From contig DATJLR010000002.1 in assembly GCA_035509435.1 (NCBI GenBank), positions 330,338 through 394,337 of the forward strand: a stretch of DNA of 64,000 bases, in the 5' to 3' direction. Below, piece after piece: positions 2,655 through 9,205 of the stretch (positions are counted from its first letter, which is position 1; every line of letters starts with the position of its first letter). This stretch comes from Minisyncoccota bacterium. GTDB lineage: Bacteria > Patescibacteriota > Minisyncoccia > UBA6257 > 2-01-FULL-56-20. Position numbers and translations under genes: made by a program. The notes under the pieces are model-generated. The model was not told the DNA's origin and made no database searches. It saw nothing but the letters and a program-made list of their open reading frames with translations.

Positions 2655-3704
2655 TTAGTGGCTGAGGAAGAAGATCACCAAGCCGAGCGCGCAGAAGATG
2701 GCCGAGACGATCCAGAAGCGCATCGTCACCTGCGACTCGGGCCAGCCGAGCGCTTCGAAGTGGTGGTGGATCGGCGCGGAGCGGAACACTTTTTTGCCGT
2801 GGCGCAGTTTCTTTGACGTCACCTGGATGATCACTGAAAGCGATTCGAGCACGAGGATGATCGTGAAGAACGGGAGGATAAGCGTGGTGTTCGTGAGCAT
2901 CGCGATGACGCCGATCGTGACGCCGAGCGACATCGAGCCCGTGTCCCCCATCATGAACTTTGCCGGATAGATGTTGAACCACAGGAACGCGAGGAGCGCG
3001 CCGATCACGACGCCGCTGAACGCGGCGAGGTCATAGCGATGCAGGACGAACGCCACCGTGGCGAGCGAGACGAACGCGAAGAGCGCCACGCCGCCGAAAA
3101 GCCCGTCGAGCCCATCCGTCTCGTTCGCGCTGAACGCGCTCGCGAAGATGATGAAGAGGAATATCGGGATGTACCACGCGCCGATCGTCACGTTGCCCAC
3201 GAACGGGACCGCGAGGACGTCCCACTGGAGCCGGAAGTAGAACCACCACGCGCCGATGCACGCCATGATAAAGTACATGATCGCTTTTTGCCTGACCTTC
3301 AATCCCCCGCCGGAAGCGCCGCCGAGGCCGAGGGCTCCCAGCCAGTCGTCGAGCAGGCCAAGAAGCGCGGCGATCGCGAGCGCGGCGATCGGCAGATATG
3401 TTTCCGCACGATCCACAAAATTGAAGTACGTCCATACGCCCCCGAACAAATGATTAAAAAGATCGAAAATGAGCGCCATGCCGAGCACGGTGCTCCAGAT
3501 GATGATGCCCGCGCTCGTCGGCGTGCCCGCTTTGTTCTTATGGAGCTCGCTGAAAATAGGCGTATCCGTACGCAGCTGTTTGCCGAATTTATATTTTTTT
3601 AAGAACGCGAACCAGAGCGGCGTGATCACGAGCGCGATCACGAACGAGATCGTGGTCAATATCGTGACCCGTACCGCTTCGCTGAGGAGCATGGATTGCG
3701 TCAT
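2655..3704 (-). CDS. mraY: Phospho-N-acetylmuramoyl-pentapeptide transferase
   Basis: Ten-TM profile, motifs NETDGLDGL and PIHHHFE. Confidence 0.9.
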   Translation of the reverse strand: MTQSMLLSEAVRVTILTTISFVIALVITPLWFAFLKKYKFGKQLRTDTPIFSELHKNKAGTPTSAGIIIWSTVLGMALIFDLFNHLFGGVWTYFNFVDRAETYLPIAALAIAALLGLLDDWLGALGLGGASGGGLKVRQKAIMYFIMACIGAWWFYFRLQWDVLAVPFVGNVTIGAWYIPIFLFIIFASAFSANETDGLDGLFGGVALFAFVSLATVAFVLHRYDLAAFSGVVIGALLAFLWFNIYPAKFMMGDTGSMSLGVTIGVIAMLTNTTLILPFFTIILVLESLSVIIQVTSKKLRHGKKVFRSAPIHHHFEALGWPESQVTMRFWIVSAIFCALGLVIFFLSH

Positions 3705-4736: not shown

Positions 4737-5318
4737 CTATTGCGCTTCTGCGGTTTCGGTGCCCGGCAGGGGCTCGGTTTGGGGCTGCGGCTGGTCGAAC
4801 ACTTTTAGCAGCTCCTGGAATTTTTCATAATCCGGCAGACCCTCCTTTTCTTTTATCCCGAGATGCTTCATGAGGTCAAATGTACCGCGGTAGAGGAAGC
4901 TCGCGGGGTGCTCCGGATCGGGAGAGCGGTCCACGAGGCCGCGGATCATCAAGCTGCGCAGGATGACGATGGAATTCACGCCGCGCAGATACTCAAGCCG
5001 CGCACGGGAGATCGGCCCAAGATACGCGATGATAGAGAGCGCCTCGAGCGACGCGGGCGTCAGATCCTCGGAGATCTCCTCCTTCATAAAGCTTTCCAGA
5101 ATATTGTTGAAGTCCGGCTTAGTGGCAAGCTGGACCTTTTCGCGATCGGAAACAAGCTGAAGGCCGCGGTCGGCGGATTCGAGATCGGTCGTTAATCCGG
5201 CGATGAGCGTTTCGAGCTCGTCTTTTTCTATTCCAAGAACGGACTGTATTTTTTTATACGTAAGGGGTTCGCCGTGGATAAAAAGCAATGCTTCAAGTGC
5301 TGCGCGTCCGTTTTTCAT
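4737..5318 (-). CDS. scpB: Segregation and condensation protein B
   Basis: N-terminal LEALLFIHGEPL winged-helix signature; adjacent to scpA. Confidence 0.85.
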   Translation of the reverse strand: MKNGRAALEALLFIHGEPLTYKKIQSVLGIEKDELETLIAGLTTDLESADRGLQLVSDREKVQLATKPDFNNILESFMKEEISEDLTPASLEALSIIAYLGPISRARLEYLRGVNSIVILRSLMIRGLVDRSPDPEHPASFLYRGTFDLMKHLGIKEKEGLPDYEKFQELLKVFDQPQPQTEPLPGTETAEAQ

Positions 5319-5328
5319 GATCTTTTAA

Positions 5329-6093
5329 TCACTTTTTCTTCACCATTATATCAGAAAAATTATCCATCTGCTCCAGGAGGACGAGCTGCTCGCGCGCGAG
5401 GTGGAGTATCGCGAGGAAGACCACGATCATCTCGCCCCGCGATTTTTCGCCGGACAGGTTGCCGAAGCGCATATCCCCTTCTTTTTGGATGCGGCCGAGC
5501 ACTTCGCTGATCTTTTCCTCGAGCGTGACAATCTTCTCCCGGATGGTCTCCGTCTCCAGATCATACGTTTTGATGGAGTCAAATATACTGCCCAATGCCG
5601 CGGCGAGCGCCTCGGTGTCCAGGTTGGCGCCGGGATAGAACATCGTCTGGCCCGGGATGTTGCCCGTGCCGCGGCCGAGGAAGTATGGCCGGCTGAACGA
5701 GTGGTGGCTCGTTTGCCAGAGCCGGTTGATCAGCTTGATCGCGGGTTTGAGCTGTTGATAGATATGCAGGCGCGCCTCGAGGTCTTTGATGTCTGCTTCC
5801 TCCTCTTCGGTCAGCGCGAGGCCCGGCAATAAATACTTCGACTTCAGAAATATCAATTTGCTCGCGACGGAAACAAAGTCCGCGAGAACGCGCAGGTCGC
5901 CCCGGAATTTGACCTCCGCCTCCGCAGCGGCATCGCCGCTCAGCCCGCTTTTGAACGTCTCCAGGTATTTCAAAAAATCGTCCGTGACCTTGGCCAAACT
6001 GACCTCGCTCACGTCCATCTTCTCCGCCTCTATGAGCTCCAGCAACTTCTCGAGCGGCCCGCTGAACTCCCCTACGCGCGTTTCATATTCCAT
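5329..6093 (-). CDS. scpA: Segregation and condensation protein A (kleisin)
   Basis: N-terminal FSGPLEKLLELIE motif typical of ScpA; scpA-scpB pair. Confidence 0.85.
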   Translation of the reverse strand: MEYETRVGEFSGPLEKLLELIEAEKMDVSEVSLAKVTDDFLKYLETFKSGLSGDAAAEAEVKFRGDLRVLADFVSVASKLIFLKSKYLLPGLALTEEEEADIKDLEARLHIYQQLKPAIKLINRLWQTSHHSFSRPYFLGRGTGNIPGQTMFYPGANLDTEALAAALGSIFDSIKTYDLETETIREKIVTLEEKISEVLGRIQKEGDMRFGNLSGEKSRGEMIVVFLAILHLAREQLVLLEQMDNFSDIMVKKK

Positions 6094-6165
6094 GGGATCA
6101 ATATTCTGATGATAGAAGAAACGGATAGAAGAATCAATTTAAGATGTTTTTAATGACGAGTATGT

Positions 6166-6558
6166 ATGCTGCTATGGATGCAAAAAGATTTCGACCGCTG
6201 GAATGCTCAAAAATCAAAACTGAACAACGAGATTACCACTCAGTTGTTTAAAGAACGCGAGATCTGGTTCTGTTACCTAGGATTGAATATCGGGCACGAG
6301 CAGGATGGAGGTGTAAAAACTTTTCTCCGGCCAGTGATCGTTTTAAAGAAAATTTCTAACGAAATGTTTTTTGGTATCCCTCTCACGCGTACGCCAAGAT
6401 TTGGAAAAGAATATTTTACGATAATCAACAATCACGGCGTTGGGTTTGCCATGCTCTCGCAGGGGCGCACATTGGACGCCCGACGTATTAAATATTGTTC
6501 GGCGATTATACCAGAAGATGAATTCGAATCACTCAAGCTTTGTTTCCTTTTATTTTAA
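6166..6558 (+). CDS. PemK/MazF-family toxin-like protein (mRNA interferase fold), no adjacent antitoxin
   Basis: Core REIWFCYLGLNIGHEQDGGVKTFLRPVIVLKK matches the MazF/PemK signature (GDIYxADLxPxxGSEQxGxRPVLV); low-GC segment. Confidence 0.7.
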   Translation: MLLWMQKDFDRWNAQKSKLNNEITTQLFKEREIWFCYLGLNIGHEQDGGVKTFLRPVIVLKKISNEMFFGIPLTRTPRFGKEYFTIINNHGVGFAMLSQGRTLDARRIKYCSAIIPEDEFESLKLCFLLF

Positions 6559-6699
6559 GTATTCTATAAAAACGTTACTCCCGCCCGGTCTGCGCGCCAG
6601 ACATCTATGGGACGGGAGAGCAATAGGACTTTTTCAGTCCTGCTATTAGAATAAATTTCTTGTGCGCAAAGTCAAATGAAATTTAATGATATTTTAATA

Positions 6700-7130
6700 A
6701 ATTTATTACCCTAAAATTAGAAAGGCCCGCTCACGGGTGAGACGGGCCGAAGGGCAACTGAGAACTGGACTCAGAAGGTGCATTTCAAATGCACTGATAC
6801 CCTGGGAAGAAAGCTCCCTCGACCGAATTATCGGCGCTCGGGAACTTACAATCGCGGTTTCCAGCAACCGCGAAGGATTACGTGCTCCTATGGGAGCGAA
6901 GGACCAATGGTCCGGTAAAAAAAGAACTGTTGTCGGGTCATGCAACCGCCTGCACGAACCCGACCATTATAACACGCATATTGCCAGCCGATGGCAGTCT
7001 CGACTGACGCACCCCTGTTCTTCCCCCGCAGACCGAGGAACGCCTTTTGGGAGTCCGGATTAGCTCAGCTACTGCGTTTCCACAGTAAGGTGTCAGGGTC
7101 AATCCGGATCAAGCACCCTAACTCAGGACA
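6700..7130 (-). ncRNA. Candidate structured ncRNA (~420 nt) with its own promoter and intrinsic terminator; class unresolved (SRP RNA, RNase P RNA or other)
   Basis: GC-rich, hairpin-dense, no protein-like ORF on either strand; minus-strand -35 TTGACA/16 nt/-10 TATACT at ~7157-7130; minus-strand terminator hairpin GGCCCGUCUCACCCGUGAGCGGGCC plus UUUCUAAUUUU at 6752-6705. Confidence 0.45.
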
Positions 7131-7190
7131 GTATAGCATATCCATAAATCCTGTCAAGCCCCTGTCAATGCCTAATTTCCAGCGTATAAT
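7130..7190. promoter_or_regulatory. Divergent overlapping sigma70-like promoters: minus-strand promoter for the ncRNA candidate and plus-strand CTGTCA/16 nt/TATAAT placing the TSS at or next to the dnaX ATG (leaderless dnaX)
   Basis: Hexamers read from sequence; TATAAT ends 8 nt before the dnaX ATG at 7199. Confidence 0.4.
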
Positions 7191-7198
7191 AGCAATAC

Positions 7199-8308
7199 AT
7201 GGCACAAGCGCTCTATCGAAAATACCGGCCGCAAAAATTGGACGATGTCCTCGGCCAGGAGACGAACGTCGAGATCCTTAAGAATGCCGCGAAGGCGGGG
7301 CGGCTGGGGCAGGCTTACATCTTTTATGGCGCGCGCGGGACAGGTAAGACGACGACGGCACGGTTGATCGCAAAATTGCTCAACTGCGAAAAACGTCGCA
7401 CCGATCCGAAGTTCGCCGCGCTCGGCGAGCCGTGCAACGAATGCCGCGAGTGCCTGGCGATCGACGCGCAGAACTCGTTCGATGTCGTGGAAATCGACGC
7501 TGCGTCCAATCGCGGCATCGACGAGATCCGCAACCTTAAGGAAAACATCCGCACGTCGCCCGCGAGCGCCGAGCACAAGGTCTACATTATAGACGAAGCA
7601 CACATGCTGACCGGCGCGGCGTTCAACGCCCTGCTCAAAACGCTCGAAGAACCGCCCAAGCACGCGGTGATCATTCTCGCGACGACGGAATTTGAAAAGT
7701 TGCCGCCGACGATTACTTCGCGCGCCCAGCGGTTCGTGTTCAAGAAACTGTCCAAGGCGACGATCATCGAAAAGCTCACCGACATCGCAAAGAAGGAAAA
7801 GATAAAGATCGATGACGCGGCGATCGAGCTCATCGCCGCCGCCGCGGAAGGAAGCTTCCGCGACGCGGAGTCGTTGCTCGACCAGATCTCATCGCTCGCG
7901 AGCGCGAAGGGCATCTCCCTTGCCGACGCCGAGCGCGTCACCGGCCGCACCGGCCTCAAGAAGGTCCACGAGATGGCGCAGTTCATCGTCGCGCGCGATG
8001 TAAAAGGGGCGCTTGGCTACCTGAACGAGCTGAACGAGGATGGCCACAACCTGGTGCAGTTCGCCAAAGACCTCATCCATTATCTGCGCAAAGTGCTGTC
8101 GCTCAAGATCAATCCGTCGCTCAAGGCGGTGATGGAACGCGACCTCACGCGTGACGAGGTCGCCGCCGCGATCGCGCTCGGCGCGGACGCCGATGCCGCC
8201 GCGCTTGTGAAGTTCGAGAAGGCGCTCATCCGCGCGTACGCGGAGATGCGCTACTCCCCTTTTGCCATCGTCCCGCTCGAAGTGGCGCTCGTGGAACAGC
8301 TCTCGTAG
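7199..8308 (+). CDS. dnaX: DNA polymerase III subunit gamma/tau, short gamma-only form (369 aa)
   Basis: YRPQKLDDVLGQE, Walker A GARGTGKTT, DEAH-like IIDEAHML and the clamp-loader box. Confidence 0.9.
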   Translation: MAQALYRKYRPQKLDDVLGQETNVEILKNAAKAGRLGQAYIFYGARGTGKTTTARLIAKLLNCEKRRTDPKFAALGEPCNECRECLAIDAQNSFDVVEIDAASNRGIDEIRNLKENIRTSPASAEHKVYIIDEAHMLTGAAFNALLKTLEEPPKHAVIILATTEFEKLPPTITSRAQRFVFKKLSKATIIEKLTDIAKKEKIKIDDAAIELIAAAAEGSFRDAESLLDQISSLASAKGISLADAERVTGRTGLKKVHEMAQFIVARDVKGALGYLNELNEDGHNLVQFAKDLIHYLRKVLSLKINPSLKAVMERDLTRDEVAAAIALGADADAAALVKFEKALIRAYAEMRYSPFAIVPLEVALVEQLS

Positions 8309-8354: not shown

Positions 8355-8426
8355 TGCCGGATCATCTAATGGTAGGATAGTGGACTCTGAATCCATTCAT
8401 CTTGGTTCGAATCCAAGTCCGGCAGC
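8355..8426 (+). tRNA. tRNA-Gln (anticodon CTG)
   Basis: Acceptor TGCCGGA/TCCGGCA, anticodon stem TGGA/TCCA with loop CT-CTG-AA, T-loop GGTTCGAATCC; CCA not encoded. Confidence 0.8.
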
Positions 8427-8618
8427 ATTGTCTCCAAATTGCAATAGTCTATATGAAGTGGTGGTCGCCGTCCTTAAGGATTCAAAAAATGAAGCACTTA
8501 AAAAGGACTTTCGTGAAAAGATTTTTGCCACTACAGGCGATCTAATAGCATTCGATTTTCCGAAAAAACCCGAACCCGAGGTGGATCGAGAAAATTTAGC
8601 GGCCGACCTTAAATAAGC

Positions 8619-8647
8619 TTGACGATGAATTTAATATATGCTATATT
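8619..8647 (+). promoter_or_regulatory. Sigma70-like promoter (TTGACG, 17-nt spacer, TGc-TATATT extended -10) for the downstream hypothetical gene
   Basis: Hexamers and spacing read from sequence in an AT-rich intergenic region. Confidence 0.4.
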
Positions 8648-8684
8648 ATGTGCTGTAGCACCTTGACTTTGAATGTGGGGGTTT

Positions 8685-9104
8685 ATGACAAAGCGCGGGC
8701 AAGAAATGAAAAACTTCCTTGATGAAGCAGTGGGCTTCGTCGAAATGTTTGACCGAATCATGGCAGAAGGTTTCATCGACGATCTGAACGTGAATGTTAC
8801 GGGATTCGAAGGAAAGGGAATAACATCCATCGTTATCAGAGGAACGGGATATCTGCCTGCTGACCGGCGGGCGATCCCTCTCGGCATCACGCCGTTCATC
8901 AATCCCGCAACGATCGTCGAAGGCATTCGTAAACAACTTCTCCATAATCGGTTTAGGATCGACAGCAGGCGATGCGAAATCAAAACCGACGATTGGGCCA
9001 AATGGGACCGCAGTGGCGAGAATGTCATCGGCAGCAGAGGCCTTCGCATCATCTTTGATTTCATGGTCTTTCTGAAGCCGAAGCAGTGGGAAGATAAAAA
9101 ATAG
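8685..9104 (+). CDS. Hypothetical protein (139 aa), low-GC, adjacent to tRNA-Gln(CUG)
   Basis: ORF with a GGGGG RBS 6 nt upstream of the ATG at 8685; no recognisable motif; GC visibly below the local average. Confidence 0.55.
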   Translation: MTKRGQEMKNFLDEAVGFVEMFDRIMAEGFIDDLNVNVTGFEGKGITSIVIRGTGYLPADRRAIPLGITPFINPATIVEGIRKQLLHNRFRIDSRRCEIKTDDWAKWDRSGENVIGSRGLRIIFDFMVFLKPKQWEDKK

Positions 9105-9205
9105 CACCTACGACGGCGACAGCAGCGGTAATTACCTTCTGGTAGTTGCCGCTTTTTCTTTTAATGCAGTTAAAACATCGTCCGACACTGCCAGCCTTAT
9201 ATCCC

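Follow-up and report, generated by a model that had tools for sequence, protein, structure and literature searches.

Large "orphan" structured non-coding RNAs such as OLE, GOLLD, ROOL, HEARO and raiA are several hundred nucleotides (nt) long, and GOLLD and ROOL are associated with variable or mobile regions. The classical RNA neighbour of dnaX is the signal recognition particle (SRP) RNA, i.e., the 4.5S RNA or scRNA. Type III toxin-antitoxin (TA) systems pair a Kid/MazF-like RNase with a structured RNA that neutralises it, and ToxN is structurally related to Kid and MazF. Here we analysed a stretch of 64,000 nt from a Minisyncoccota bacterium (contig DATJLR010000002.1, positions 330,338 to 394,337; hereafter the window, numbered from its first letter), in which an RNA of about 413 nt is predicted on the minus strand, from 7124 to 6712, between a PemK/MazF-like gene and dnaX. 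The best overall explanation of this RNA gene, to which we give a probability of about 0.6, is that it would be one of several mutually exclusive cassettes in a single recombining slot beside a pair formed by a small RNA (sRNA) and a MazF-fold gene, and that it would act in trans as a folded, abundant RNA in a strain-variable, probably conflict-related locus. It is very likely a real, novel and accessory structured RNA gene; a mechanism as a trans-acting, protein-binding scaffold or decoy is a tentative proposal drawn from sequence features.

The RNA has the make-up of a stand-alone sigma-70 transcription unit, with a promoter, an intrinsic terminator and compensatory pairing on one strand (Table 1). 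The near-consensus minus-strand promoter named in an earlier note on this DNA (TTGACA, 16-nt spacer, TATACT) was found as described and carries a TG extension in addition, so that 11 of 12 consensus matches are combined with an extended -10 element, and the predicted start is at about 7124/7123. Across the five RNA variants known to us, the promoter region, GGGGCTTGACAGGATTnnTGGATATGCTATACT, hardly changes, where the four-fold degenerate sites of dnaX are only 51-67% identical. About 375 nt past the predicted start lies the terminator hairpin, GGCCCG(U)CUCA-CCCG-UGAGCGGGCC, directly followed on its 3' side by the U-tract UUUCUAAUUUUA. The earlier note was right about a strong terminator and slightly generous about its size (an 11-bp stem, 6752-6705), since the stem has 10 bp with one bulge, and because of this bulge it was missed by a simple terminator scan.

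Homologues of the RNA were reached through a neighbouring gene. By its DnaX relatives, the window belongs to the Patescibacteria, among metagenome-assembled genomes that are Paceibacteria-like. Eighty genome loci (L001-L080) were fetched through DnaX and the RNA was not in any of them, including L001, in which DnaX is 93% identical and only a 400-nt spacer separates scpA from dnaX. The MazF-like protein led to 39 relatives in a protein library of 5.8 billion clusters; in the contigs inspected, its gene lies between scpA and dnaX in all but one (P0017, loci L093/L094). The genomes found by this route are 87-98% identical to the window in DnaX and therefore represent a narrow clade. Five forms of the RNA, that of the window and those of four other lineages, occupy the same position on the same strand. 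The window form is full-length and 100% identical over the RNA region in an independent assembly (L081, Logan SRR8879132), and the form of L086 and L087 is full-length as well and was found with the single window sequence at an nhmmer E value of 1e-42. Two further forms, of L091/L092 and of four assemblies related to L095, carry deletions that are weighed below. L105 keeps the promoter and the 3' half, and its 5' half is so strongly diverged that a resemblance to the other type remains only in the motif UCCCCAAGCCGUUUCUGCGGG..GGGAAGGAAUCACAG and in the arrangement of the hairpins. A 38-nt block, UAAUCCGGACUCCCAAAAGnnGUUCCUCGGUCUGCGGG, is unchanged in the window, L086 and L091, and the same in L095 up to the deletion point; the segment GUAGUCCUUCGCGG...CUGGAAnCCGCGAUUGUAGGG is almost invariant across the variants. 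The core pattern of the RNA had no match in viral contigs or in a metagenome collection which evidently lacks the samples holding L086 and L091, and the whole gap gave no BLAST match in phage and plasmid collections. By sequence comparison, the RNA thus appears as a new structured-RNA family of one narrow Paceibacteria clade, as far as searched.

The earlier note had proposed a covariation analysis with the intergenic regions of relatives. In a MAFFT alignment (A5) with an RNAalifold structure, 91.9% of 346 cells were paired and both sides had changed in 18 of 81 pairs, as compared to 6.1 +/- 2.0 in column shuffles (none of 500 reached 18) and 2-6 with slid partners. MAFFT mis-registers the variable hairpins, and the helices were instead registered by hand in Python; the resulting table of 14 helices holds 19 pairs of 89 with both-sided changes, 10 with one-sided (wobble) changes and 5 unpaired cells among 346. 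Pairing is kept in P6 (GUCAGUCGA/UCGGCUGGC vs GUCAACCAA/UUGGUUGAC), in P3 (UACUGUG/CGCAGUA vs UAUCGCUC/GAGCGGUA), in the inner stem of P7 (UGCA/UGCA vs UACA/UGUA) and in H1 (GCUCC/GGAGC vs ACUCC/GGAGU). It is also kept in the terminator, where GGCCCG.CUCA/UGAGCGGGCC of the window is replaced in L086, L095 and L105 by GGCCUCUUCG-loop-CGAAGAGGCC, another sequence with the same pairing through compensatory changes. The cells hold 51 G-U and 8 A-C combinations, and pairing would fall to 79.5% if the plus strand were read; this asymmetry identifies the minus strand as the RNA. The minus strand folds at -177.6 kcal/mol (z = -4.95; none of 100 dinucleotide shuffles as good) and the plus strand at -148.3 kcal/mol (z = -3.0). 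Homologues, compensatory changes, the G-U/A-C asymmetry and the promoter geometry all agree with the structured RNA unit with its own promoter and terminator that had been suspected here.

The 413-nt RNA is composed of about 14 helices in two domains, and no direct or internal repeats were found within it. Since P2 overlaps the loop of P1, the two form a pseudoknot or alternative pairings. Two tertiary contacts are candidates. The loop of H2 may kiss that of H5 (GACUGG with CCAGUC; GCUGG with CCAGU in the window copy), and the purine stretch GGGAAGAA of the core loop (7025-7018) may pair over a long range with the pyrimidine tract UUCUUCCC. The deletion in L095 removes the purine partner, and there alone the pyrimidine tract is degenerate and reads AUUAUUCA, which fits a real purine/pyrimidine contact. 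A long-range helix proposed by RNAalifold, GCGCGUAGUCCU x GGGAUUACAGCGC (columns 254-265 with 343-355), was rejected because it is disrupted in the copy of the window; the alternative P10 (GGGAU x GUCCC) was preferred, its pairing being held through changes on both sides. Judged by these comparisons, the RNA appears accessory and modular and under at least partial purifying selection, the 5' domain (P1-P8) seemingly fast-evolving and partly dispensable and the 3' domain better conserved.

It is extremely improbable that the region codes for protein, be it as a gene or as a pseudogene, or that it serves as a long 5' untranslated region of dnaX, read from the plus strand. Mechanical open reading frames (ORFs) of 79 aa (minus) and 108 aa (plus) do occur in the window, but a conserved ORF sought in six frames across five homologues was not found, the homologues differ by indels of 1, 2, 3, 4 and 5 nt, not multiples of three, and the gene callers of the public assemblies called nothing in the region. 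The earlier statement that the gap has no protein-like ORF thus holds, with no frame open in all homologues. The proteins that occupy the same place in relatives have no tblastn similarity to the RNA region, which also rules out the RNA as a decayed copy of their genes. As for a dnaX leader, TATAAT stands 8 nt (AGCAATAC) before the dnaX ATG with no Shine-Dalgarno sequence, in loci with an empty slot as well, and the G-U/A-C asymmetry favours the minus strand. The leaderless dnaX of the earlier note, with CTGTCA as -35 element, was recovered here, and the same arrangement (8 nt, once 9 nt, to the ATG) is kept in 15 related loci and in L001, so that dnaX appears leaderless throughout the clade.

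A relic, i.e., a decaying or functionless transcribed spacer that is being lost piecemeal in a recombination hot spot, is in our opinion unlikely, and it is here that the points weighing against our interpretation have to be set out. The RNA of L091 and L092 is without its last ~72 nt including the terminator hairpin, and that of L095, L096, L097 and L103 lacks ~128 central nt with the junction at a CCTCG microhomology typical of slippage, the 5' domain of L095-L097 being half-deleted; these are independent large deletions in two lineages. The RNA is sporadic among near relatives and replaced by unrelated cassettes. The window copy is 0.62-0.70 identical to the others, no higher than the four-fold sites of dnaX (0.59-0.67), and the constraint on the RNA may therefore be weak or lineage-specific. 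Only five sequence variants were found, all of one clade, and it is from them that the structure was derived, so the covariation is suggestive and not a formal test of the R-scape type. Expression of the RNA is predicted from sequence signals only. The genes annotated so far (about half of the 64-kb stretch) have ordinary housekeeping roles, and no partner protein is linked to the 413-nt RNA. Complementarity calculated with RNAduplex between the RNA and the sRNA, the MazF-like mRNA or the dnaX 5' end was no better than that of shuffles, the method being crude for long RNAs. Against a relic, compensatory changes keep the stems with 92% of cells paired, long invariant blocks and the promoter spacer persist where neutral sites are 33-49% diverged, and the 3' domain is 0.76-0.90 identical among L086, L091, L095 and L105 where dnaX four-fold sites are 0.51-0.65 identical. 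The fold of the window copy has the low z score given above, and the L095 pyrimidine tract is degenerate only where its proposed partner is deleted.

The slot that holds the RNA lies between the dnaX promoter and the sRNA (window ~6700-7160 and the equivalent stretch of L082-L106) and is hypervariable, being filled by the RNA, by ORFan protein genes or by nothing (Table 1). The slot proteins had no match in Pfam and PADLOC. Most cassettes have the backbone CATTGACAGGGGnTTGAC in common, which contains the dnaX -35 and the cassette -35; the cassette sequences part inside the promoter spacer and rejoin at TTTTATTAAAAA. The dnaX and RNA promoters stand back-to-back, the -35 elements 4 bp and the starts about 75 bp apart. 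The histories of slot and neighbours are mosaic. The RNA of L086 is 88% identical to that of L091 and ~65% to that of the window at equal dnaX divergence. L105 joins a sRNA of the window type, without the CUUCGGGC insertion, to a 3' domain of the L086 type, and L082 and L085 have slot proteins that are 96% identical and MazF-like proteins that are 72% identical. The slot therefore behaves as a recombination hot spot with the RNA as one of its alleles. The RNA is not a housekeeping one, because close relatives carry unrelated ORFans or nothing in the slot and because large deletions occur. In L106 a frameshifted transposase-like remnant (positions 1-620; IS30-like by eye only) abuts the slot cassette, and the cassette gene of L098 (~2950-3400) is a frameshifted copy of the intact 148-aa gene of L106; both are signs of ongoing turnover of the slot.

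Table 1. Features of the RNA locus and contents of the slot (window positions unless a locus is named).
Feature	Position or locus	Strand	Remarks
Structured non-coding RNA	6712..7124	minus	~413 nt from predicted start to end of U-tract; promoter and terminator, homologues, covariation, no conserved ORF
RNA promoter	7130..7157	minus	-35 TTGACA 7157-7152; 16-nt spacer; TG-extended -10 TGcTATACT 7138-7130 (TG 7138-7137, TATACT 7135-7130)
RNA intrinsic terminator	6712..6748	minus	hairpin 6748-6724, U-tract 6723-6712
5' domain	6898..7122	minus	helix arms checked; P3, P6 and P7 with changes on both sides
P1	7122-7115 with 7099-7092	minus	5' domain
P2	7108-7101 with 7061-7054	minus	overlaps P1 loop
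P3	hairpin 7087-7070	minus	5' domain
Invariant core block	7062-7010	minus	3' end is a CUG/CAG-closed purine-rich loop, the "SRP-like" motif of the earlier note
P6	hairpin 7008-6983	minus	conserved loop GACUGYCA
P7	hairpin 6964-6932	minus	5' domain
U-rich linker	6927-6914	minus	between P7 and P8
P8	hairpin 6913-6901	minus	5' domain
3' domain	6752..6897	minus	in window, L086, L095 and L105; first part only in L091
H1	6897-6884	minus	3' domain
H2	6873-6852	minus	invariant stem, conserved loop (G)AUGACUGGAAA
H3	6847-6811	minus	length variable
Pyrimidine tract UUCUUCCC	6811-6804	minus	3' domain
P10 three-way junction	6802-6752	minus	encloses H4 (6794-6778) and H5 (6774-6758)
dnaX promoter and start	7162..7201	plus	CTGTCA 7162-7167, 17 nt, TATAAT 7185-7190, ATG 7199
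sRNA unit	6567..6675	minus	promoter TTGACT 6675-6670, 16 nt, TATTCT 6653-6648; ~75-90 nt RNA
sRNA hairpin A	6642-6625	minus	covarying
sRNA hairpin B	6618-6578	minus	long, GC
sRNA U-tail UAACGUUUUUAU	6577-6566	minus	ends 8 nt from stop codon of MazF-like gene
MazF-fold toxin-like gene	6166..6558	plus	130 aa; convergent with both RNAs; Pfam PemK_toxin 24.2 bits (cut-off 23.1)
Slot protein, ORFan	L082/L085		127-131 aa
Slot protein, membrane	L089		185 aa
Slot protein, ORFan	L106		148 aa; frameshifted copy in L098
Slot protein, ORFan	L100		134 aa
Slot protein, ORFan	L101		56 aa
Slot content, hydrophobic fragment	L088		
Slot empty	L084, L104		

In the window, scpB and scpA (4737-6093, minus strand) are upstream of the PemK/MazF-like gene, which is followed by ~640 nt without a credible ORF, by dnaX (7199-8308, plus strand) and by a tRNA-Gln gene at 8355. 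The ~640-nt gap holds two minus-strand units, the 413-nt RNA and the sRNA at ~6644-6567. On the 3' side of dnaX, the tRNA-Gln gene of the window is followed by ORFan reading frames (8609-9107), and a LAGLIDADG_3-like gene (weak Pfam match) stands just 3' of dnaX in L085 (5386-5997), L089 (5108-5387) and L091 (4688-5344).

The sRNA promoter is preceded by an AT-rich UP-like element, and element and promoter are fully conserved. The sRNA was found at the expected position in 28 of 28 loci L081-L108 (nhmmer E values of 1e-19 to 1e-32) and was not credible in L001-L080, where the one match was marginal (E = 0.24); it has no Rfam match. A search with the sRNA pattern recovered nine metagenome loci and none in viral contigs. 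The sRNA is present in L093, L094 and L102, where the MazF-like gene is in another neighbourhood, and in L100 and L106, which are without this gene. The apical loop of hairpin B (6593-6603) always shows a six-base palindrome, GCGCGC, GCCGGC or GCUAGC (alignments A3/A6), which could be reminiscent of kissing-loop dimerisation sites or could be a palindrome at the DNA level. The MazF-like gene is identified as such by the weak Pfam match and a fold match only: its AlphaFold model (predicted local distance difference score 79) is matched to MazF/Kid by Foldseek with a probability of 1.00 and a template modelling score of 0.6-0.7, with an extra N-terminal helix, and no match was found in NCBIfam, PADLOC or the PDB sequences. 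The protein evolves fast (67-82% aa identity where DnaX has 87-98%). The G+C content is 0.37-0.43 at 6100-6700, which covers the MazF-like gene and the sRNA, and 0.55-0.66 in the flanking genes; the low value is consistent with foreign or fast-evolving DNA. No protein antitoxin gene lies beside the MazF-fold gene. In the loci examined it was never without the sRNA, even in another genomic context, and the sRNA persists without the toxin; toxin-antitoxin pairs are expected to show this pattern of dependency. These patterns suggest a MazF-family toxin that may be controlled by RNA, the sRNA being either antisense to the 3' untranslated region of the toxin or protein-binding.

Whether the 413-nt RNA could itself be the partner of the toxin has to be weighed against this sRNA. 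By analogy with type III TA systems, the RNA might be an antitoxin, an inhibitor or a decoy substrate of the adjacent MazF-fold endoribonuclease: all five RNA-bearing loci hold the MazF-fold gene within 150-200 nt, this fast-evolving gene of MazF fold has no protein antitoxin beside it, and the locus is as mosaic and variable as conflict loci are. But the toxin is without the RNA in at least eight loci (L082/85, L084, L088, L089, L093, L098, L101 and L104), the RNA has no tandem repeats and does not lie upstream on the strand of the toxin. The sRNA, which is found in every toxin locus and is retained when the toxin is lost, is a far better antitoxin candidate. We give such a partnership a small chance of being right.

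An action in cis, in which divergent transcription would tune the dnaX promoter or the RNA would be a leader or precursor reading into the sRNA, is quite improbable. The closeness of the back-to-back promoters agrees with it, and so does the position of the sRNA, 35-70 nt past the terminator on the same strand, the terminator being deleted in L091/L092 where read-through is expected. But every cassette uses the same -35, the protein-coding ones as well, which makes a promoter effect not specific to the RNA, and promoter interference needs no covarying fold of 400 nt; the sRNA, for its part, occurs in loci that lack the RNA and is preceded by a fully conserved UP-like element and promoter of its own. 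A riboswitch or cis leader was rejected, as what follows downstream on the minus strand is a terminator, the sRNA with its own promoter and the convergent MazF-like gene, with no ORF to be regulated.

The explanation we prefer for the 413-nt RNA is an action in trans, in which it would serve as a protein-binding scaffold or decoy and does not appear to work through a peptide, antisense pairing or a cis leader. Such an action is suggested because the promoter is strong and almost invariant, the RNA has its own terminator and many hairpins with conserved loops and junctions, and because there is no cis target ORF, no peptide and no better-than-random complementarity to the neighbours. A role in strain-level conflict is suggested because the fast-recombining slot adjoins a fast-evolving MazF-fold RNase. 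One may speculate further that the RNA founds a class of large RNAs that serve as exchangeable cargo of an islet for conflict or immunity in episymbiotic bacteria of the candidate phyla radiation (CPR), equivalent to the ORFans that replace them and working with the sRNA and the MazF-fold RNase as decoy, sensor or inhibitor that sets the specificity of defence; we regard this extension as doubtful.

As to known families, the proposed Infernal scan was run and is consistent with the class having been left open in the earlier note: no Rfam 15 family matches the RNA. With all 4227 families at gathering thresholds, cmscan found three tRNAs only in the whole window. At E<=10 with permissive filters, 6550-7300 gave only chance matches of 10-15 bits, and L105 and L086 likewise gave chance matches, which differed between the homologues (sub-threshold range overall 10-19 bits). 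Eighteen related loci gave tRNAs only at gathering score. ARAGORN reported no tmRNA in the window; at 2522-2596 on the minus strand it called a tRNA whose type was undetermined and whose anticodon has four bases (cgac). The Rfam tRNA model gave no match there at gathering score, and the call may be spurious or may stand for a pseudo-tRNA or an unusual tRNA. The literature on structured RNAs of the CPR, Parcubacteria or Patescibacteria, or on an RNA near dnaX, held nothing relevant.

It is accordingly very improbable that the RNA is a highly diverged SRP RNA, ribonuclease P (RNase P) RNA, transfer-messenger RNA (tmRNA) or 6S RNA missed by the Rfam models. The place beside dnaX would suit an SRP RNA, GGGGGAAGAACAGGGG and, in L105, CCGGGAAGGAAUCACAG superficially resemble SRP domain IV, and GGGUGCUUGAUCCGGAUUGACCC superficially resembles a tmRNA 5' end. 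These weak resemblances, which the earlier note had pointed out, did not survive: no SRP, RNase P, tmRNA or 6S model matched at E<=10 in the window or the two homologues scanned, and no tmRNA was called. The motif GGGGGAAGAACAGGGG sits in a purine-rich loop that differs in sequence among the homologues; the 11 nt of the look-alike GGGGGAAGAAC form a loop that CUG/CAG closes and that reads CGGGUGAUUAA in L086 and has an insertion in L105. The hint at a dnaX-linked SRP RNA fails as well, since close relatives lack the RNA, carry protein genes in its place or have lost part of it. An SRP RNA is expected as one intact copy per genome; at this locus there are deletions of 72-128 nt in L091 and L095, which an essential RNA would not tolerate, and the RNA is absent in L001-L008 and replaced or absent in many genomes of the same clade. 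For RNase P, the P4 strands (AGGAAAGUCCGG / ACAGAA-CCGGCUUA), which the earlier note could not place either, did not turn up when the sequence was read through.

Non-coding DNA is very scarce in the tiny genomes of Patescibacteria, whose regulatory RNAs are almost uncharted, so the RNA adds a family outside Rfam. The locus may serve as a concrete test ground for the exchange of RNA genes and ORFan protein genes among strains, and since the only plausible antitoxin beside its MazF-fold RNase is an RNA, it allows one to ask whether RNA controls a MazF-family toxin. What limits the impact is that the distribution known so far is narrow, that the RNA is being eroded in some lineages and that its function is deduced from sequence.

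The 413-nt RNA shares with SRP RNA the place beside dnaX and a purine-rich motif of the GGAAG type. It differs in failing the Bacteria_small_SRP and Bacteria_large_SRP models, in its length of ~413 nt and its divergent orientation, in having the motif in a variable loop instead of a helix-8-like stem with a GNRA tetraloop, and in not being conserved among close relatives. Unlike tmRNA, it ends in a terminator hairpin and not in a T-arm with CCA, and it has no Rfam tmRNA match. With type III TA systems (ToxI/ToxN, CptIN and TenpIN), it has in common an RNA gene immediately next to the gene of a Kid/MazF-fold endoribonuclease with no protein antitoxin, whereas tandem repeats are missing from the RNA, its gene stands downstream of the toxin gene and on the other strand, and the toxin is often without it. 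It resembles 6S RNA, Ms1 and the CsrB-type sponges, which represent the kind of mechanism proposed here, in having many hairpins and a gene of its own with a strong promoter and a terminator. No model match was found with these; 6S RNA is set apart by its central bubble, in place of which the RNA has a row of short hairpins and junctions, and CsrB by GGA-rich hairpin loops, which the RNA does not have. OLE, GOLLD, ROOL, HEARO and raiA do not match at E<=10, and the RNA was found in one Paceibacteria clade as far as searched, as an exchangeable cassette whose -35 is common to protein cassettes and with lineage-specific loss of whole subdomains. With these large orphan RNAs it shares a length of several hundred nt, a covarying fold of many helices, the lack of an ORF and a patchy distribution. 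In kind, it is a stand-alone structured bacterial non-coding RNA, with an unusual, cassette-like genomic behaviour.

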